From: Myxococcales bacterium
Lineage (GTDB): Bacteria > Desulfobacterota > Binatia > HRBIN30
Direction of reading: 5' to 3'
Length of the DNA stretch: 64,000 bases
NCBI GenBank assembly: GCA_037445065.1
Contig: JBBILD010000001.1
Location: 64,001 to 128,000 of the forward strand
Position 1 is the stretch's first letter. Every line of letters starts with the position of its first letter. Shown here piece by piece: positions 1 to 55,639 of this stretch. Made by a program: the position numbers and the translations under genes. The notes below the pieces were generated by a model. It was given only the letters and a program-made list of their open reading frames with translations. It was not told the origin of the DNA and did no database searches.

Positions 1-1342
1 ATGTTTTCAGCGTCAAACTAGCGAGCCTGCGCCGGAGCTTGGAAGGACGGCTCCCAAGAGAACCCACTGGCTGAAAGCCAATGCCTGCACGCTTTAGCAC
101 CTGAAGTTCGCGAGTTTTCGGCAAAAAGAAGTCGCGGATGCGTTCAAAGGCACGATCGATCTCCTCGGTCGAACGCGCGAAGCAAAAGCGTAAGTGCCCC
201 TCTCCCGTAGGACCGAATGCAACACCAGGGACGACGGCGACCTTGGCGACGCGCAAGAGTTCCCGTGCAAGGCGCATAGAGTCGCGTGCACAAGGGACGC
301 CGTCTTTAATGCGTGGAAAGGCAAAGTACGAGGCCTGTGGTGTCTGGTAGTCAAACACCCAAGGCAACGAATCCAAATGCTCGATCATTCTCCGCCTGCG
401 CGCCCGGAGTTCTTCCCGGAATCGTCGCACTAGTTTTTCGCCGTGCTCCAATGCCGCAAGGGCTCCGTACTGAGACGCAACGGGCGCACAGGTTACTAAT
501 GCGTCATGGGCGCGGAGGATACGTGCCGCGAGGTTCCGGTCCGTGTGCAGAAAGCCGACTCGCCAGCCAGTCATGGCGAACGCCTTAGAGAACGAGCAAA
601 TGCGGACCGTTCGGTGGCGGAAGTCCGGCCATCGGGCGGGACTCATGACCGGTCGCTCCACGTAAACAAAATCCTTGTAAACCTCATCAGAAATGACAAT
701 CAGGTTGTGTCGCTCAGCGAGATCGAGAAGCGAGCGAACCGCCTCTGGTGAGAAGATCGTGCCGGTTGGGTTGTTTGGCTGGGCAATGAGGATTGCGCGG
801 GTGCGCGAGGTCACTGCCTGTCGGCAACGCTCCGGATCGAGATCGAAACTCCTGTCTTCGTCGAGTGGAACGAAGCGCGCGTGTAGTCCGGCTAGCTTCA
901 ACGCGCTGAGATACGAGGTGTACGAGGGTGAGGGTAGAAGCACCTCGCATCCGGGTTCGAACAGTGCCAGCAGTGATGCGCTCAGACCTTCGATCGATCC
1001 GCAGGTGACGATGATTTCGGAGTCAGGATCGTAGTGCATCCCGTCCTGCTTCAACGTTTCGGCGATTTGCTCGCGCAGTCGTGGCAGGCCCGGGGACAGG
1101 GTGTACCGCGCACAAGAGCCGTCGCGGATGTGTTGAACGACGAACTGCTTGATTTCCTCCGGGGTATCGAAACTAGGGATCCCTTGCGCGAGCGAGATTA
1201 CGTCTGGGAGACCTGCTGCTTCCAGTTCGATGGCCTTGATCGGCGAGAGTACGAGTTCTTCCCACGGGCGTGGTGCAAGCGTACCCCAAAGTGAGGGATC
1301 CTCTGCCAATTGGCGTTTGCGGCTACCGTTCCTCTCGGCCAT
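1..1342 (-). CDS. PLP-dependent aminotransferase class I/II, runs off the left edge (3' partial)
   Basis: Not in the ORF track. Manual translation from ATG at 1342 gives ISLAQGIP, IIVTCGSIEG, QPNNPTG, ISDEVY, SFSKAFAMTGWRVG (PLP lysine) and VAVVPGVAFGPTGEGHLRFCFA, with no stop before position 1. Confidence 0.9.
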   Translation of the reverse strand, partial: MAERNGSRKRQLAEDPSLWGTLAPRPWEELVLSPIKAIELEAAGLPDVISLAQGIPSFDTPEEIKQFVVQHIRDGSCARYTLSPGLPRLREQIAETLKQDGMHYDPDSEIIVTCGSIEGLSASLLALFEPGCEVLLPSPSYTSYLSALKLAGLHARFVPLDEDRSFDLDPERCRQAVTSRTRAILIAQPNNPTGTIFSPEAVRSLLDLAERHNLIVISDEVYKDFVYVERPVMSPARWPDFRHRTVRICSFSKAFAMTGWRVGFLHTDRNLAARILRAHDALVTCAPVASQYGALAALEHGEKLVRRFREELRARRRRMIEHLDSLPWVFDYQTPQASYFAFPRIKDGVPCARDSMRLARELLRVAKVAVVPGVAFGPTGEGHLRFCFARSTEEIDRAFERIRDFFLPKTRELQVLKRAGIGFQPVGSLGSRPSKLRRRLASLTLKT

Positions 1343-49096: not shown

Positions 49097-51322
49097 ATGA
49101 CGGCGGACCCGCAGTCGCCTGCCTTCGAGAGCGAGCTTTCGGATGACGAGCGCCGTCGCAGGCGGCGTGAGGCGTGGCTCATCCTGATCGGTCTCTTGCT
49201 CTTTGTTGTGCTGACCTGGCTGACGGTGGCGCGGGCGCCGGAAGGGGGAGTTTTCGGCAACAGCACGTTTTCCTTCCTCCTCATCAATGTCAACCTGCTA
49301 CTGCTGATTCTCCTTGTCTTCCTGGTGACTCGGAACTTGGTCAAACTCGTGGCGGAACGGCGGCGTGGAATTTTTGGGTCGCGCCTGCGCAGCCGCTTAG
49401 TGGCCGCGTTCCTGCTGATCACCCTGGGACCGAGTGTCCTCTTGTTCTTCGTGGCCCAAGGATTCTTGCAGGCCGTTTTCACTAGTTGGTTCAACGTTCG
49501 CGTAGAGTCCGCGCTTCGCAACTCGGTGCAGGTGTCTCAGAGTTACTACCAGTTCGCTGCGAATGGTGCGATTCACTTCGCTCGCGAACTGGCACGTGGA
49601 TTGGGCGAACGCTGGTTACTGGAGTCGCGCGGGACCGAGATTGCTGGTTGGCTGGAAAGTAAACGAGCGGAGTACGGACTTGCGATGGTGGGGCTTTGGA
49701 ACCAAGGGGGGAGCCCGCTGGCGATGGCGCGAGAGAAACAGATGCACAACGCTCCACTGGCAGATCCAGCCGCGATTCGGGAGGCTCTGGCCGGTGGAGA
49801 AGCGGCCGACACGATGCGCTGGGGGAGGTCGGACGTGGTTTGGGTAGCCGTTCCGGTTCGCGACCCCGGAGGAGCGGTGGTTGCGGCTTTGGGAGTGGCA
49901 TACTGGGTGCCGCGCAGCGTGAGCGAATTGACGCGGGCAATCGCCCGTTCATACGCGGAGTACCGACAGTTGGAGATTTTGCGCCAGCCGATCAAAAACA
50001 GTTACATACTCACACTGGCACTCATTACGTTGGTGCTGATTTTTTCCGGAACCTGGTTCGGGATCCGGCAGGCGCGAAGAATCTCGAAGCCGTTGCTGGA
50101 ACTCGCCGCTGGAACTCGCGAGGTGGCACGGGGGAATTGGAGTTACCGGATCGAACCCCCGGGCGATCACGAGATTGCCTTGCTTGTCGAAGCGTTCAAT
50201 CAAATGACGGCGGAGCTGGAGCAAACGAACCGGGAACTCGTGCAGCGCCGAACGTACGTGGAAAACCTCCTGGCGAACATTGGAGCAGGAGTGCTGTCGT
50301 TGGATTCCACCGGCGTGGTGACCACGGTCAACCCAGCGGCCGAGCGCTTGCTCGGAGTCGCAGCCAGCAGCGCACTGGGTAAGCATTGGGGTGCAGTGTT
50401 TGCTGGCAGCGGCTGGAGCAAGCTCCAGGAGATGGTGGCTGAGGCAACCGTAGAACCTAGGAGAGAAATCCAGCGACAGATGCAGCTGACCTCGTCGGGA
50501 GAGGGTCGGGTTGTGCTGGTCACAGCAACGCCTCTGGGGGAAGGAACGCAGGGTAGGCAAGGTCTGATGCTGTTTTTTGAGGATGTTACCCACCTCATGC
50601 GGGTACAGCGGATGGAGGCTTGGCGTGAGGTTGCGCGCCGCCTTGCACACGAAATCAAGAACCCGCTGACCCCGATTCAACTGTCCGCGCAACGGTTGGA
50701 GAAGCGGCTGCTGCCGCTCCTTTCACCCGAGGACCGCGCGATCGTCGAAGAGTGCACGGAAACGATTGTCCAGGAGGTTGAGCACCTGAAACGACTGGTT
50801 ACGGAGTTCTCTCGGTTTGCGCGCTTGCCTGCAGTGCAGTTGGTGCCGAGCGACGTCAACGCATTGGTGGAAGACACGGTGCGTATGTTCCGCAGTGGAC
50901 AGCCGAAGCTCGAGGTGCGTTTTTACCCAGGCTCGGGACTGCCACTGGTTGAGCTCGACCGCGACGCGATTAAGCGCGCGCTGTGGAATCTGCTCGATAA
51001 CGCTGCCGCGGCAGTGGCGGAGGAAGCATCGCCCCGGGTTGAGGTGCGCACGGAATACCATCCCGACGCGGGCGCGGTTCGCATCGAGGTGGCCGACAAT
51101 GGTTGTGGTATCCCCCGCGATGCGAAGGCGCGGTTGTTCGAGCCTTACTTTTCGACCAAGCCGGAAGGCACCGGGCTGGGACTTGCCATCGTGGCCTCGA
51201 TCGCGGCGGAGCATCAGGCTTACGTGCACGTGACGGATAATCTTCCGAAGGGGGCGCGCTTTGTACTCGAATTTCCATTGCGATCCTTGAAAGCGCTGCG
51301 TCCTTCGGCTGTAGGAGCGTAG
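49097..51322 (+). CDS. ntrY: NtrY-family sensor histidine kinase (TM-periplasmic-HAMP-PAS-HisKA-HATPase)
   Basis: GSRLRSRLV, WFNVRVE, HAMP (DHEIALLVEAFNQM), PAS, AWREVARRLAHEIKNPLTPIQLSAQRL, GTGLGL. Confidence 0.85.
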   Translation: MTADPQSPAFESELSDDERRRRRREAWLILIGLLLFVVLTWLTVARAPEGGVFGNSTFSFLLINVNLLLLILLVFLVTRNLVKLVAERRRGIFGSRLRSRLVAAFLLITLGPSVLLFFVAQGFLQAVFTSWFNVRVESALRNSVQVSQSYYQFAANGAIHFARELARGLGERWLLESRGTEIAGWLESKRAEYGLAMVGLWNQGGSPLAMAREKQMHNAPLADPAAIREALAGGEAADTMRWGRSDVVWVAVPVRDPGGAVVAALGVAYWVPRSVSELTRAIARSYAEYRQLEILRQPIKNSYILTLALITLVLIFSGTWFGIRQARRISKPLLELAAGTREVARGNWSYRIEPPGDHEIALLVEAFNQMTAELEQTNRELVQRRTYVENLLANIGAGVLSLDSTGVVTTVNPAAERLLGVAASSALGKHWGAVFAGSGWSKLQEMVAEATVEPRREIQRQMQLTSSGEGRVVLVTATPLGEGTQGRQGLMLFFEDVTHLMRVQRMEAWREVARRLAHEIKNPLTPIQLSAQRLEKRLLPLLSPEDRAIVEECTETIVQEVEHLKRLVTEFSRFARLPAVQLVPSDVNALVEDTVRMFRSGQPKLEVRFYPGSGLPLVELDRDAIKRALWNLLDNAAAAVAEEASPRVEVRTEYHPDAGAVRIEVADNGCGIPRDAKARLFEPYFSTKPEGTGLGLAIVASIAAEHQAYVHVTDNLPKGARFVLEFPLRSLKALRPSAVGA

Positions 51323-51450
51323 CCTTGGTGTTCTGGGTGAGTAAGAAAGGTGGGGCTACCGCTTGGGCGTTACGCTGCGAACCTTCGCTCGCCTGAGATT
51401 CCGGTGGCAGCAGCCGGAACCAGGTGCGAAAGTCGGTGGGAGGAGGAGCC

Positions 51451-52728
51451 GTGACAACAGTTTTGGTTGTGGATGACGAAGCTCACATCCGTTCCTCGCT
51501 GCGTGGAATTTTGTCGGAAGAAGGCATGCACGTGGTGGAGGCGGCGAACGGGCGAGAAGCCCTGGCTTTGCTCGAACAATGTAGGCCTGACCTGGTCGTG
51601 CTCGACGTCTGGATGCCCGAGGTAGATGGTCTAGAGTTCTTGCGCGCCATCCAGAACCGGGCCCAGGCGCCCGCGGTCTTGATGATTTCCGGCCATGGCA
51701 ACATCGAGACCGCGGTCAAAGCCACACAACTGGGAGCCGTAGATTTTATCGAAAAGCCATTCTCGCTTGCGGGATTCCTGGGTGCGGTTGAACGCGCCCT
51801 GCGCCGCCAGCAGGTTCAAAACCAGCAGGATCCCCACCCTGCCTCCCCGCTCCCTACGAGTAGCCGCTCGGTGGAGGGGGTTGCTCCGCAAGTCCGTGGG
51901 CGTTTTCGGCAACGGACGGTTGCGCGGAGCATGGTCGATACCGGAACGGGTTTGCATAGCGGAGTAAAAACAGGACTGATCTTACAGCCCATGCCGCCAG
52001 GTTCGGGGATCGTGTTCTCGAACCTTTCCGCCGAGACGCCCGTACCCGCTCATTTGGACTTCGTGGACTCCACAGGCTACGCCACCACATTGCATCGCGC
52101 CGGGGTGACCATCCGTACGGTCGAGCACTTACTGGCCGCGCTCCATGCGTACCGAGTCACGAACTTGTTCGTGAAAGTCCAAGGGGAAGTCCCGATTATG
52201 GACGGTTCTGCGCAGCGTTGGTGCGAGCTGATCGAGAGCGCTGGGGTGGAGGAGCAGGACGCTTGGGCCGAGGAATACGCGGTGCGCGAGGTCGTGGAGA
52301 TAAGGCGCAGCGAGGAGGAGTGGATTCGGATCGAGCCCTTCGACAGACTCGCAGTGACGTACGTGCTCGAATATCCGCCACCCGTGGGCAGGCAAGAGTA
52401 TTCCTTTGTGTTGCAGGACCCGCACAGTTTCCGGGAGCAGATTGCACCCGCGCGCACGTTCGGATTCGTGAAGGACATGAAGCTCTTAGCCTCGATGGGC
52501 TTAGCGTCCGGCGGCCGCTTAGATAACTGCATTCTGATCGACGACGAAAAAATCGTGAACACCACCTTGCGGTTCCCTGAAGAACTCGCTCGCCACAAGA
52601 TCCTCGACATCTGTGGCGACATGTATTTGCTGGGCCGGCCGCTGCGCGGGAAGATCACTGCGAAAAGAACCGGTCACTCCGAAAACATCGCCTTACTTCG
52701 CAAGCTTCGCAGTCAGTTCGAGGGGTGA
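51451..52728 (+). CDS. lpxC: Response-regulator receiver domain fused to UDP-3-O-acyl-N-acetylglucosamine deacetylase
   Basis: REC: VVDDE, LDVWMP, ISGHG, EKPF. LpxC: QRT..GTGLHSG, TVEHLLAAL, EVPIMDGSA, APARTFGF, HKILD, GHSEN. AGGAGGAG before GTG 51451. Confidence 0.93.
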   Translation: MTTVLVVDDEAHIRSSLRGILSEEGMHVVEAANGREALALLEQCRPDLVVLDVWMPEVDGLEFLRAIQNRAQAPAVLMISGHGNIETAVKATQLGAVDFIEKPFSLAGFLGAVERALRRQQVQNQQDPHPASPLPTSSRSVEGVAPQVRGRFRQRTVARSMVDTGTGLHSGVKTGLILQPMPPGSGIVFSNLSAETPVPAHLDFVDSTGYATTLHRAGVTIRTVEHLLAALHAYRVTNLFVKVQGEVPIMDGSAQRWCELIESAGVEEQDAWAEEYAVREVVEIRRSEEEWIRIEPFDRLAVTYVLEYPPPVGRQEYSFVLQDPHSFREQIAPARTFGFVKDMKLLASMGLASGGRLDNCILIDDEKIVNTTLRFPEELARHKILDICGDMYLLGRPLRGKITAKRTGHSENIALLRKLRSQFEG

Positions 52729-52861: not shown

Positions 52862-54013
52862 TCAACGTTGCACCACCGTGGCAGCAAGGCGATGACTGCG
52901 CCGGATTTCCCGGGCAACCCGCTGTGCTTGTTTGGGGCTCGGGAAATCTCCTACCGTCACCCGATACACGGCCTGGCGCTTGGATCGGCCCTGTTCGATT
53001 TTGGCGGGGTAGCCGGAGCGGTCGAGCGATTTTTGTACCCGCTCTGCGAGCGCATAGTCCCGAAAGTTGCCCAGACGCACTGCGTAGGCCGAGCGTTTCT
53101 GTGCGCTTCCCTGCCCTACTTCGTCACCCCCGCCGCGTGTGGTCTCGCCGCTCCCTGCCACTTGCAGAGTTTCAGGAAATACCTCCGGCCACGATTCACC
53201 TTCCAATGCTGCGGCCAGCAGGCGTTTGATATCCCCCCATAGATCAGTGGAGCCGAGCACTGCAAAACTGACGCTCCGCTCACCCGCCCAAGCTGCGCCG
53301 ACGAAGCAGCGTTTTGCCGCCCGAGTCCACCCTGTTTTGCCCACAACTCGAAGGTGGTAGTCGCCGAGCAAGCGATTGTGATTGCGAAGCGCAATGCGTC
53401 GCATTGAGCCTGACGTCGGCCGGATCTCTCCCGTACGCGTGCTCACGATTGCTTCGAACAAAGGATGGCGGAGTGCATACCGGAAAATGACGGCCAAGTC
53501 CCGCGCACTCGATACGTGCCGATCATCGGGCAACCCGTGAGGATTGACAAAGTGTGTGTTTCGCGCCCCCAATTTCCAGGCCAGCGCATTCATCCGTTCC
53601 GCGAAGGAAGCAACCGAGCCTGCCAACCCCTCGGCAATGACCACACTGGCGTCATTGGCCGAATTGAGCAGCACCGCGTAGACAAGATCCGCAAGCCGCA
53701 GGGTCATTCCCGGTTTGAGCCCCAGCTTTGAAGCCGGGGTCGCCGCAGCTTCTTTGGAAACCGGAAAGGACTCCTGCATACGTCCGCTCTGGATTGCCAG
53801 CAGGGCAGTGACCACTTTCGTTGTGCTGGCGGGGGGTAGGGGCGTATCCGGCTCGTGTGCCCACAACACGGACCCGGTTGCGTTGTCCAGCACGATTGCG
53901 GCACGAGCCGTGAGCAGGCGGGGTGAGTTCCCTCCGTTCGCGGCTTCGACACCGGACGCACCCCACCCCGCAGCCCAAAACGCGATGACCGCCAAAAAAC
54001 GCCATGTCCGCAC
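52862..54013 (-). CDS. D-alanyl-D-alanine carboxypeptidase (peptidase S11) with C-terminal SPOR domain
   Basis: ASTTK (SxxK), SAND (SxN), NPHGL, KTG. C-terminal YAVRLGNF...YRVTVG. Confidence 0.9.
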   Translation of the reverse strand: MRTWRFLAVIAFWAAGWGASGVEAANGGNSPRLLTARAAIVLDNATGSVLWAHEPDTPLPPASTTKVVTALLAIQSGRMQESFPVSKEAAATPASKLGLKPGMTLRLADLVYAVLLNSANDASVVIAEGLAGSVASFAERMNALAWKLGARNTHFVNPHGLPDDRHVSSARDLAVIFRYALRHPLFEAIVSTRTGEIRPTSGSMRRIALRNHNRLLGDYHLRVVGKTGWTRAAKRCFVGAAWAGERSVSFAVLGSTDLWGDIKRLLAAALEGESWPEVFPETLQVAGSGETTRGGGDEVGQGSAQKRSAYAVRLGNFRDYALAERVQKSLDRSGYPAKIEQGRSKRQAVYRVTVGDFPSPKQAQRVAREIRRSHRLAATVVQR

Positions 54014-54115
54014 CTGCACCACCTCCTCAGCCGCGAGTTTCCTCCAACCCAACACACAGCATGCGCCAAGACACCCAGCGCTGTCAACGGAAAGTCAACA
54101 GGCGAATTCCTCCAG

Positions 54116-55219
54116 CTATTGAGCCCGCAGGTCTTCGTCAAGCCACGGCGCCGCTGGTGCAGCGTGTGTCAGCACCGAGCGGAACAGAAACACACTGAGA
54201 ATGAGAGGCAGCACGTAGTACGCGACACGAAAAATCAGTACTGCAATGACCGCGACCTCGAATGGCACGCCCAATCCGGCAAAGATGGCGGCCATTGAGC
54301 CTTCCATGATTCCCAGACCACCCGGAATAAACGACACCAAGGACAAGACAATCCCAACTGCGAAGCCAACAATCACGAAACTGAAGGGTAAAGGATAACC
54401 CACGGCCAGAAACGCCGTGTGCAGGATGAGCAGAGTTGCCACCCAGTCTACCGCGATCCAGAAAATCGGCCCCAGCATGTGGGTCTTCCGTTCCATCAAG
54501 AACTCGATGCCGCGGTCTAGATTTCTTTGAAAACGCCAGATCCGAACACGCCGGAGTTTGAGCCGGGGGGCTACCCGGTGCACTAGCCAGTGCCCTACCT
54601 CGGCGAGCAAAAACAAGGTGCGCCGGCGCACGCGGCGGTGAATGAGTAAGAAAACGGCAATCAGGGACGCGATGGTGAAAACCGCGGTAAGCACGGCGCT
54701 GGTGATGAGTGTGAGGCCAGTGAGTTCGTGGGTTTTGAGCAGGTAGAAAAACCCGGCAAGCACGAACAGCAGCAACATCAGGTTGGTGATGAACGTTTGC
54801 ACCAAGGAAATCGTCACGGCTCGCCCAGACGGCACCTTGAGCCGCAGAAAGAAGTACATCCGCACGGCAAAACCGCTGAGCCCTCCACTCGTGATCAAGT
54901 GGTTGATGGTGTTTGCGACGAAGGTCACCTTGAGCATGTCCCAGAACGGGACCCAGTACCCGGCAGCGCGCGCAATGTCTTGATAGGACCGGGCCATCGC
55001 CACATAACTCGCCATGGAGCACAGCACGGGTAAAAGCAGGCGGGAGGGGTGCACCTTTTGCGTCGTGCGCCAAAGCTCGCGTGCATCGGAAAACGCAAAA
55101 AGAGCCACCAAAGCCGCGAGGCCGAAAACCAGCAGCCAGGAAAGCCACTGTGGCCGCCGCAATAGGCGCTGGGCGAGAGGATCCGCCGCCGCAACCTCGG
55201 CATTGGAGTTTTTTGCCAT
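54116..55219 (-). CDS. Flippase-like membrane protein (lysylphosphatidylglycerol synthase TM family)
   Basis: Multiple TM helices, IPGGLGIMEG and AVLIFR motifs. Confidence 0.85.
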   Translation of the reverse strand: MAKNSNAEVAAADPLAQRLLRRPQWLSWLLVFGLAALVALFAFSDARELWRTTQKVHPSRLLLPVLCSMASYVAMARSYQDIARAAGYWVPFWDMLKVTFVANTINHLITSGGLSGFAVRMYFFLRLKVPSGRAVTISLVQTFITNLMLLLFVLAGFFYLLKTHELTGLTLITSAVLTAVFTIASLIAVFLLIHRRVRRRTLFLLAEVGHWLVHRVAPRLKLRRVRIWRFQRNLDRGIEFLMERKTHMLGPIFWIAVDWVATLLILHTAFLAVGYPLPFSFVIVGFAVGIVLSLVSFIPGGLGIMEGSMAAIFAGLGVPFEVAVIAVLIFRVAYYVLPLILSVFLFRSVLTHAAPAAPWLDEDLRAQ

Positions 55220-55339
55220 CGTGCCAACGCGTGAAAGAAGCAGCGAATTACTTTTGCTGCGAGGAGAGGTCAAGGATGCTCGAACTTGTGGGCTTGCCAG
55301 CGAGTCGCTAAGCAGGGGCGTACTCTCGTTGGCGCGCCT

Positions 55340-55639
55340 ATGTTTGTGATCGCGAACTTACTTGTGGCTCTGGCGCGTGTTCTAGACCTCCTGCTCCACA
55401 TCTACAGTTTGATCCTGATTGTCCGTGTCATTGTGTCTTGGGTCAATGCTGACCCGTACAATCCGCTCGTGCGCTTCTTGTACCAGGCCACCGAGCCGTT
55501 GCTGTACCGGGTCCGACGTGCTCTGCCGGTTGTGTACGCGGGGATCGACTTTTCCCCCCTCGTGGTACTGATCGCGATTTTTTTCTTGCAGGGGTTTTTA
55601 GTGACTACGTTGCAAGACATCGCAGCGTCTCTGCGGTGA
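55340..55639 (+). CDS. yggT: YggT-family membrane protein
   Basis: SWVNADPYNPLVRFLYQATEP, IDFSPLV. Confidence 0.88.
   Translation: MFVIANLLVALARVLDLLLHIYSLILIVRVIVSWVNADPYNPLVRFLYQATEPLLYRVRRALPVVYAGIDFSPLVVLIAIFFLQGFLVTTLQDIAASLR

Follow-up and report, generated by a model that had tools for sequence, protein, structure and literature searches.

A response-regulator receiver fused to LpxC downstream of an NtrY-like sensor kinase suggests two-component control of lipid A synthesis

Introduction

Lipid A synthesis is controlled at LpxC, an enzyme long pursued as an antibiotic target. In Escherichia coli its control is proteolytic, through FtsH, LapB (YciM) and YejM, and the C-terminal end of the enzyme is needed for its degradation by FtsH; to our knowledge, the regulation of LpxC outside a few proteobacteria is largely unknown. 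Response regulators with enzymatic outputs are established in other settings, including CheB, the proteins PleD and WspR, in which a receiver domain (REC) precedes GGDEF, and the REC-HD-GYP protein RpfG; in CheB, access to the active site is blocked until the receiver is phosphorylated. We know of no enzymatic response regulator that acts on lipid A synthesis. Here we analyze a 64,000-nucleotide stretch of a genome labelled Myxococcales bacterium (GTDB lineage Desulfobacterota; Binatia; HRBIN30; assembly GCA_037445065.1, contig JBBILD010000001.1), hereafter the window, in which one gene joins a receiver to a complete LpxC and follows, on the same strand, a gene encoding an NtrY-like sensor histidine kinase.

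Two described systems are the closest points of comparison at the level of the circuit. Passages concerning lpxC in a survey of Desulfovibrio vulgaris regulators (Rajeev et al. 2011, PMC3333781) give this gene as the single mapped target of the regulator DVU2934, which is encoded in an operon with the kinase DVU2931, and place lpxC of Syntrophobacter fumaroxidans directly upstream of the orthologous operon. In Rhodobacter sphaeroides, according to the portion of a study of NtrYX that deals with lpxC (PMC7240162), deletion of ntrYX raises lpxC mRNA 8.8-fold, an effect taken by its authors as indirect. The terms "receiver" and "fusion" have zero occurrences in a term search of a 2025 J Biol Chem review of lipid A regulation (PMC12444477); to the extent of that search, direct two-component phosphorylation of LpxC would, if true, be a control mode absent from the review. 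Full-text literature searches, with subscription journals and response-regulator censuses outside their scope, likewise yielded no description of a receiver-LpxC fusion, in agreement with an initial annotation of this DNA, made by a model from its letters and reading frames, that knew of no description of the mechanism. Public databases do contain the architecture, under the labels LpxC or NtrX.

We document the integrity and conservation of this fusion, identify the regulator from which its receiver appears to derive, and compare its layouts across the phylum and beyond. What is new is a response regulator with an enzymatic output in which that output is the committed enzyme of lipid A synthesis. 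The sole LpxC of the host, fused to a receiver behind its sensor kinase, suggests phosphorylation as a direct switch of lipid A synthesis.

Results and Discussion

A receiver and a complete LpxC in one reading frame

Coordinates of the fusion gene and its features are collected in Table 1; residue numbers throughout are those of its longest open reading frame (ORF), of 434 amino acids (aa). Translation probably starts at GTG 51451, because a Shine-Dalgarno stretch, GGGAGGAGGAG, precedes that codon at 51438-51448; the product would then have 425 aa, the length of the database entry P0001. The initial annotation had described a single uninterrupted frame with a receiver followed by a complete LpxC, and both Pfam and NCBIfam bear this out; its positions for the phospho-acceptor Asp61, the beginning of LpxC (~51907-51910) and His391 of the HKILD motif are exact. 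The receiver matches Response_reg (PF00072) at aa 13-119 with 112 bits (cut-off 30.2). The deacetylase matches LpxC (PF03331) at aa 163-428 with 288 bits (cut-off 27), covering profile positions 1-266 of 268, and the lpxC equivalog TIGR00325 of NCBIfam with 257.2 bits (cut-off 187.25). It aligns with the solved Pseudomonas aeruginosa LpxC at an E-value of 2e-54, and E234, H235, T345, H391, K392, D395, D399 and H418 line up with conserved residues of solved LpxCs, among which we take the zinc ligands (His, His, Asp) and the catalytic Glu and His to be those assigned in the LpxC literature. Only 16 aa remain after H418. A known natural fusion of this enzyme, LpxC-FabZ (NF009667), carries a metabolic enzyme as C-terminal partner, and the window fusion scores 206.9 bits against that NCBIfam model (cut-off 465).

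NtrX, with which the receiver had been compared, is a transcriptional regulator composed of a receiver, an AAA+ module and a helix-turn-helix domain (HTH). As had been claimed, these output domains are missing: the Pfam scan of the fusion ORF found no AAA+ or HTH domain. NtrX (NF051870) is the best receiver match in NCBIfam, at 119.8 bits against a cut-off of 600 and over profile positions 3-127 of 452 only, and the closest solved relatives of the receiver are NtrC1, NtrX and NtrC4, with the Brucella NtrX structures 4d6x and 5m7n among the best. By these matches the fusion is classed as a descendant of an NtrC/NtrX-type regulator and not as a member of NtrX. Its likeness to the NtrY/NtrX pairs of alpha- and betaproteobacteria lies in the architecture of the kinase and in this best receiver match; in R. 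sphaeroides NtrYX affects the envelope as well as lpxC mRNA.

An assembly chimera or a one-off deletion can be ruled out. A 79,285-base contig from a different sample (run X2) covers 50900-52728 unbroken, with 22 substitutions and one 1-base insertion, which is intergenic, and a 499-base contig of run X4 bridges 51680-52178, so that the junction at 51800-51910, whose coverage the initial annotation had asked to confirm, is spanned by an independent X2 contig as well as by X4. Runs X5 and X6, from other studies, hold only the fragments 51044-51711 and 52584-52728, both outside the junction. To the spanning contigs are added the recurrence of the fusion in related genomes, in the best database matches and in loci of named species (27 of 80), all described below. 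Four samples of a single study, their runs labelled subsurface metagenome, contain DNA nearly identical to 50900-52728, and runs of two further studies, labelled hot springs metagenome, match it in part (~30% of sampled words).

The genome of the host (97.7% complete, 46 contigs) contains a single LpxC match by Pfam, which answers the question, raised at the outset, of whether the fusion is the only lpxC. Because it is the sole match and LpxB (310.5 bits) and LpxK (286.3 bits) are present, there is indirect evidence that the fusion serves the Raetz pathway of the host. Considered with the residues above, it is predicted to be a catalytically competent and sole LpxC.

Pairing with an NtrY-like kinase

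The kinase matches NtrY_N at 31.6 bits (cut-off 23.2; profile positions 6-132 of 291), and none of the 25 NCBIfam rows listed for it is an NtrY equivalog, all of those rows falling below their cut-offs; judged from its domains it is NtrY-type at the level of architecture only. At that level an NtrY kinase does precede the fusion as first described, with the order NtrY_N-HAMP-PAS-HisKA-HATPase_c and the fusion ~100 nt downstream. The two genes probably form one operon, because no significant terminator and no sigma70-like promoter lies between them: the intergenic stretch yields zero sigma70-like sites and three terminator-like sites (4.0 expected in shuffles), so that a terminator-like hairpin at 51307-51324 does not rise above chance.

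This arrangement is a stable feature of the order, for which 41 genomes were compared, the host (G000) counted. The full-length fusion occurs in 39 of them and a kinase orthologue, in single copy, in all 41; with coordinates compared by eye, the kinase lies directly upstream of the fusion on the same strand in 38 of the 41. Each of the three exceptions lies at a contig end: the kinase of G007 sits at the edge of a different contig; that of G032 is likewise at a contig edge, with no fusion found in the genome; and that of G034 precedes a receiver fragment whose open frame ends after 76 aa. The best 120 matches in a collection of 5.8 billion proteins (59-98% identity; 421-449 aa) all carry PF03331 and PF00072, those with names being mostly labelled Candidatus Binatia, and 17 of the 30 best ESM Atlas clusters have Response_reg plus LpxC in 100% of their members. 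The architecture thus recurs across genomes as anticipated. Its linkage to the kinase gene, also anticipated, stands within the order; in other lineages the fusion is often unlinked from the kinase.

The receiver is orthologous to the usual partner of the kinase

When compared with seven canonical regulators encoded next to orthologous kinases, the window receiver scores 119-132 bits in 7/7 cases, with up to 55% identity, as against at most 99 bits with nine paralogues in its own genome and at most 94 bits with 28 paralogues of two further genomes (G073 and G042). A quick IQ-TREE tree of 81 receivers parts 37 fusion and seven cognate receivers from 37 paralogues by one branch with a Shimodaira-Hasegawa-like approximate likelihood ratio test (SH-aLRT) value of 99; built on 134 columns only, it leaves the inner order unresolved. 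By score and by phylogeny, then, the receiver of the fusion is orthologous to that of the regulator usually encoded after this kinase. No orthologous canonical regulator was found in the host genome, where the closest paralogues reach 40-42% identity and group with the other paralogues in the receiver tree.

NtrX proper lacks the GAFTGA loop, and the canonical orthologues in this phylum carry it. The initial description of an NtrX-like receiver in the place of ntrX holds insofar as the receiver is the orthologue of the usual partner of the kinase; that partner is of the sigma54 type with GAFTGA, so it is NtrC-like and not strictly NtrX.

A probable ancestral circuit and intermediate forms

We surveyed 201 genomes of the GTDB phylum with an LpxC match threshold of E<=1e-35, which retrieved LpxC from 187 of them. 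In 27 cases the match aligns across both receiver and LpxC; in 21 it aligns on LpxC alone, at 50-61% identity, within open frames of 450-837 aa; and the remainder are standalone genes of ~300 aa with 36-45% identity. The same threshold gives a single LpxC match in 46 of the 48 fusion-pattern genomes. Twenty of the 48 loci were examined, 15 by Pfam, the other five displaying REC-LpxC by BLAST only. The 15 comprise nine REC-LpxC proteins (414-467 aa) and six proteins of 685-795 aa with the order REC-Sigma54_activat-AAA_lid_14-LpxC, hereafter REC-AAA-LpxC. Two apparent variants dissolved on inspection: supposedly degenerate receivers in frames of 450-497 aa (G110, G177, G163, G165) are ordinary receivers by Pfam, with longer linkers, and in frames of 1378 and 1423 aa (G149, G182) that suggested an in-frame fusion to the kinase, the kinase sits in another frame.

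A kinase orthologue was found once in 182 of the 201 genomes. By eye, the matches listed include at least 29 genomes in which a standalone lpxC precedes the kinase on the same strand by no more than ~2.5 kb. Six such loci (L034, L035, L036, L038, L039, L040) all have the order lpxC-(DUF4390)-kinase-regulator, the regulator being REC-Sigma54_activat-AAA_lid-HTH_8 with Sigma54_activat scores of 239-253 bits; L043 holds a kinase-regulator pair with no lpxC nearby. Five further loci (L037, L041, L042, L046, L051) were left out of the Pfam scan, their ORF picks looking unreliable in high-GC DNA. In four of the six standalone loci an element of the form TGGCA-N7-TTGC, resembling the -24/-12 site of sigma54, stands 61-70 nt before lpxC with a score of 13.5 of 15, which ~1% of random windows of 370 nt attain; the score is 12.5 in a fifth locus, the sixth has no such element, and two of the four come from one family.

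As far as the passages on DVU2931/DVU2934 (PMC3333781) extend, the D. vulgaris pair is similarly a two-component system devoted to lpxC, and the S. fumaroxidans arrangement, with lpxC just ahead of the orthologous operon, matches that of these six loci, the comparison being one of layout and sigma54-like elements. The same passages have DVU2934 binding DNA upstream of lpxC, whereas the window fusion is devoid of DNA-binding and ATPase parts and carries its receiver covalently on the enzyme.

The REC-AAA-LpxC proteins appear to record the passage from one arrangement to the other. Two sets were compared, the best 120 matches to one such protein (P0121-P0240) and locus proteins from L014-L019. 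All 120 matches contain LpxC and AAA+ families, and 119 also contain a receiver; those with names are labelled Thermodesulfobacteriota, Desulfobacterota or Deltaproteobacteria, and the JGI pipeline calls many of them NtrX. The GAFTGA loop, present as GAFTGA or GSFTGA in 6/7 canonical regulators, has no conserved counterpart in them. Walker A (GxxGxGK) is kept in 7/7 canonical regulators and in 118/120 matches and 5/5 locus proteins, whereas the DE of Walker B, kept in 7/7 canonical regulators, survives in 4/120 and 0/5; the arginine of NVREL, likewise kept in 7/7, is lysine in 120/120 and 5/5. This pattern suggests an AAA+ module that binds nucleotide and is hydrolysis-dead. Because Walker A is kept, the Walker B glutamate lost and the change from Arg to Lys uniform, it further suggests a retained non-hydrolytic role in nucleotide binding rather than free decay. 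In one protein, P0152, the AAA lid is separated from LpxC by a surviving HTH_8 (aa 416-452; 32.2 bits, cut-off 22), and therefore the regulator to whose end lpxC was attached appears to have been a complete REC-AAA-HTH protein.

An LpxC-domain tree of 53 sequences parts 26 fused from 27 standalone domains by one branch (SH-aLRT 99). Our best reading of these comparisons is that a regulator of lpxC became fused to its own target, and that control would have passed from transcription to direct action of the phosphorylated receiver. All stages of a regulator capturing its target seem to survive: separate genes, REC-AAA-HTH-LpxC, REC-LpxC with an apparently dead AAA+ module in between, and REC-LpxC.

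Dispersal beyond the phylum

From 601 matches we kept 80 loci representing named species, whose taxon labels are those of the submitters and unverified. They include 27 REC-LpxC (and probably L097), nine REC-AAA-LpxC (besides L083, scored as AAA-LpxC) and 42 standalone genes. Fusion loci bear the labels Deltaproteobacteria, Binatia/Binataceae, Syntrophobacter(aceae), Desulfomonile and Desulfocapsaceae, and further Thermoanaerobaculia (8 loci), Holophagae (2), Acidobacteria, Aminicenantes, Terriglobia, Thermodesulfovibrionia and Nitrospinota. Fusion loci of Deltaproteobacteria, Binatia, Syntrophobacter and Thermodesulfovibrionia have the kinase immediately upstream. The fusion occurs in abundant yet uncultured lineages of soil, subsurface and sediment.

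Residue conservation and predicted structure

The five receiver positions of the phosphorylation site (D17, D18, D61, S/T89 and K111) are invariant in the 120 best REC-LpxC matches and in 12/12 REC-LpxC locus proteins, as they are in 7/7 canonical regulators; the REC-AAA-LpxC sets keep them in 119/120 and 5/5, the sole exception being the protein that has no receiver. This constancy spans 37-98% identity and several phyla. Purifying selection, strong at the phospho-acceptor site, acts specifically on the receiver, because Walker B and GAFTGA decayed in the REC-AAA-LpxC proteins and the receiver positions were kept. In the deacetylase, neither the two sets of 120 matches nor the five REC-AAA-LpxC locus proteins vary at E234, H235, T345, F346, H391, K392, D395, D399 or H418; at these nine positions the 12 REC-LpxC locus proteins show one T-to-S and three F-to-Y replacements.

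Fused and standalone enzymes differ in two respects. The tail after the catalytic His has a median of 17 aa in fused proteins (n=240) and of 42 in standalone ones (interquartile range 33-45, n=69), and seventeen positions carry residues kept in 90% or more of fused LpxC domains and rare in standalone ones: V171, G184, I186, S216, H241, Y243, K251, C267, L315, Y317, R365, L371, E375, K376, T380, Y401 and T416. Fused LpxCs thus lack most of the C-terminal tail, unlike the enzyme under tail-dependent control in E. coli. The FtsH, LapB and YejM routes concern this enzyme too, with flux through the committed step to be limited in either case, and they act by proteolysis or partner proteins.

An AlphaFold2 model built from a 73-row alignment, with a mean predicted local distance difference test score (pLDDT) of 90.4 and a predicted template modelling score (pTM) of 0.87, is confident in both domains. 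It displays a (beta-alpha)5 receiver with alpha5 at aa 115-135 and LpxC from aa 160, separated by a linker in which pLDDT falls below 50 at aa 140-142 and 144-156. A complex prediction of the receiver (aa 1-135) against LpxC (aa 158-434), from a 73-row alignment for each and with no controls, returned interaction scores derived from aligned errors (ipSAE) of 0.02 and 0.01 against a mark of 0.32, values that have no bearing either way.

A putative two-component system with LpxC as output

We consider it likely that kinase and fusion constitute a two-component system with an enzyme output, in which the kinase phosphorylates the receiver carried by LpxC and so sets the flux into lipid A, and which originated as a regulator capturing its target. 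The initial annotation had arrived at the same overall reading, which is supported wherever sequence can speak to it: the fusion, its status as sole copy, the pairing, the orthology and the residues. From such evidence we infer phosphotransfer, a consequence for LpxC activity and its sign, and the kind of signal sensed.

The membrane kinase would sense a signal, probably extracytoplasmic or related to the envelope, autophosphorylate on His518 and pass the phosphate to Asp61 of the fused receiver, whose phosphorylation state would set the deacetylation of UDP-3-O-acyl-GlcNAc. CheB-type regulators, in which a flexible linker connects the receiver with a catalytic domain whose activity depends on phosphorylation of that receiver, provide by analogy the expected working model, although the output domains of CheB, PleD, WspR and RpfG are unrelated to LpxC. 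The unphosphorylated receiver would accordingly hold LpxC in a state of low activity and phosphorylation would relieve it, by way of the long alpha5 helix and of a dimer formed across the alpha4-beta5-alpha5 face. If control exists, we lean slightly towards this direction, because the ancestral phosphorylated regulator was presumably a sigma54 activator of lpxC whose sign would have been kept, and because the receivers of solved structure nearest to that of the fusion, of the NtrC1/NtrC4/NtrX type, have a long alpha5 helix. The gene itself would have arisen when lpxC was appended 3' to the gene of its dedicated REC-AAA+-HTH regulator, after which the AAA+ and HTH modules decayed and, in the lineage of the host, were lost.

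Several observations weigh against this account. In R. sphaeroides, to judge from the portion of PMC7240162 cited above, NtrYX acts negatively on lpxC, and the direction of control proposed here is argued by analogy from continuity with an activator ancestor only. A pTM of 0.87, given without contacts or predicted aligned error, does not translate into a modelled domain interface, and a disordered linker, of a length that differs between proteins (414-467 aa in total) and with room for an entire AAA+ module, implies no fixed geometry of coupling. The LpxC tree is unrooted and intermixes REC-AAA-LpxC with REC-LpxC, leaving the order of the two unresolved. Genomic linkage is also uneven: 11 of the 20 examined phylum loci have no kinase in the upstream DNA inspected (at least ~3.3 kb), and no fusion locus labelled Acidobacteriota has one upstream. 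The kinase of those 11 genomes is on another contig (of the remaining loci, six have it directly upstream and three stop at contig ends), and a full-length kinase orthologue was found in three of five such genomes searched beyond the phylum. One Holophagae genome (G243) keeps a canonical regulator beside the kinase (Table 1) plus a REC-LpxC gene elsewhere (L099), an arrangement that may represent a branched pathway with a transcriptional and an enzymatic arm. Finally, G074 (L024 and L072) and G238 carry a standalone LpxC besides the fused copy.

In both of these last genomes the standalone lpxC is just upstream of the kinase. The fused copy of G074 is very divergent, at 37-39% identity and on a long branch of the LpxC tree; G238, with 5.9 Mb and 5% contamination, may be a mixed bin.

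Among other explanations, the main rival, which we nonetheless consider unlikely, is control of stability: the receiver would be a conditional degron or adaptor-docking module whose phosphorylation sets the amount of LpxC through FtsH, Lon or ClpXP, in place of tail-dependent proteolysis. The loss of ~25 aa of tail from fused LpxCs speaks for it, as does a flexible linker of variable length, better suited to a tag than to an allosteric coupler; RssB, a receiver acting as a proteolysis adaptor, is moreover found among the solved relatives (3eq2) and the NCBIfam matches. The similarity to RssB, however, is no higher than that to any NtrC-type receiver, Pfam finds no protease or adaptor gene linked to the locus, and the seventeen fusion-specific LpxC positions fit a domain-domain interface at least as well. 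It is highly improbable, in our estimation, that the receiver is a relic of an accidental fusion that became fixed, with LpxC constitutive and the kinase no longer signalling to it. The AAA+ and HTH modules of the same protein family did decay, and outside the order the fusion is often unlinked from the kinase; yet the phospho-acceptor positions are invariant in 132/132 REC-LpxC and 124/125 REC-AAA-LpxC proteins, and the kinase is kept in single copy. Kinases distant from the fusion, moreover, usually lack another regulator, none adjoining them in seven of eight loci, with the eighth (L045) inconclusive at a contig end and L046 and L051 left out. Still less probable is signalling in the reverse sense, by which LpxC would report occupancy by substrate or product to a receiver serving as phosphate sink or kinase modulator for another output. 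Two receivers could compete for phosphate in the one genome that has both a canonical partner beside the kinase and a fusion, but with no orthologous canonical regulator left in the host there is no second output to tune, and the LpxC domain is the sole LpxC with every catalytic residue kept.

Returning to direct phospho-control of LpxC, we would extend it, with belief and doubt in equal measure, to a broader proposal: that a sigma54 circuit has collapsed into a post-translational switch by which an envelope-sensing kinase gates LpxC within seconds, replacing tail-dependent proteolysis, in Binatia-like bacteria, other Desulfobacterota, Acidobacteriota, Nitrospirota and Nitrospinota, and that forms with a dead AAA+ module would add nucleotide-dependent oligomerisation.

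Neighbouring genes

Table 1. Features of the kinase-fusion locus in the window, with genes from comparison loci (locus given before the coordinates). REC, receiver domain; aa, amino acids.
Feature	Position	Strand	Remarks
NtrY-like sensor histidine kinase, 741 aa	49097..51322	+	NtrY_N, HAMP, PAS, HisKA, HATPase_c (Pfam)
Kinase, predicted transmembrane segments	aa 26-44, 60-78, 101-~128, 304-322		loop of ~175 aa between segments 3 and 4
Kinase HAMP	50072-50224	+	
Kinase PAS	50258-50593	+	
Kinase HisKA	50621-50827	+	H-box His518 at 50648-50650, in AHEIKNPL
Kinase HATPase_c	50957-51283	+	
Kinase-fusion intergenic stretch	51323..51450	+	contains Shine-Dalgarno GGGAGGAGGAG
REC-LpxC fusion gene	51424..52728	+	longest ORF 434 aa, no internal stop
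Receiver domain	51460..51828	+	Pfam aa 13-119; long alpha5 helix to aa 135
Receiver pocket	D61 51604-51606; S89 51688-51690; K111 51754-51756	+	D17/D18; D61 phospho-acceptor, in LDVWMP
Pro/Ser/Gln-rich linker	51829..51900	+	~24 aa (aa 136-159); predicted disordered
LpxC deacetylase domain	51910..52707	+	aa 163-428; Pfam, NCBIfam
LpxC residues	E234/H235 52123-52128; H391 52594-52596; D395 52606-52608; H418 52675-52677	+	also T345, K392, D399
D-Ala-D-Ala carboxypeptidase (Peptidase_S11)	52862..54055	-	C-terminal SPOR domain; convergent to fusion
LPG_synthase_TM gene	54116-55273	-	MprF-like membrane domain (Pfam); after carboxypeptidase
YGGT gene	55286-55639	+	Pfam
DUF4390 genes (examples)	L039:2047-2622; L040:6322-6879; L048:6303-6932; L049:6253-6828; L050:6509-7105		
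Holophagae canonical regulator beside kinase	L186:164-1480	-	REC-sigma54 AAA+-HTH_8

The envelope genes reported by the initial annotation beside the fusion (Peptidase_S11-SPOR, LPG_synthase_TM and YGGT) are present. As a conserved association, the Peptidase_S11-SPOR neighbour is kept within the order only: it lies downstream of the fusion in 11/11 order loci (L003-L013) and in 1/12 more distant loci. A link between septal peptidoglycan trimming and lipid A control through this neighbour is possible. Of the LPG_synthase_TM gene, the last 43-47 residues are visible in three order loci, which end there. Upstream of the kinase the window has a divergent CoA-transferase gene and DUF4390 is absent; in many relatives a DUF4390 gene is found directly upstream of the NtrY-like kinase, either between lpxC and the kinase or beside orphan kinases.

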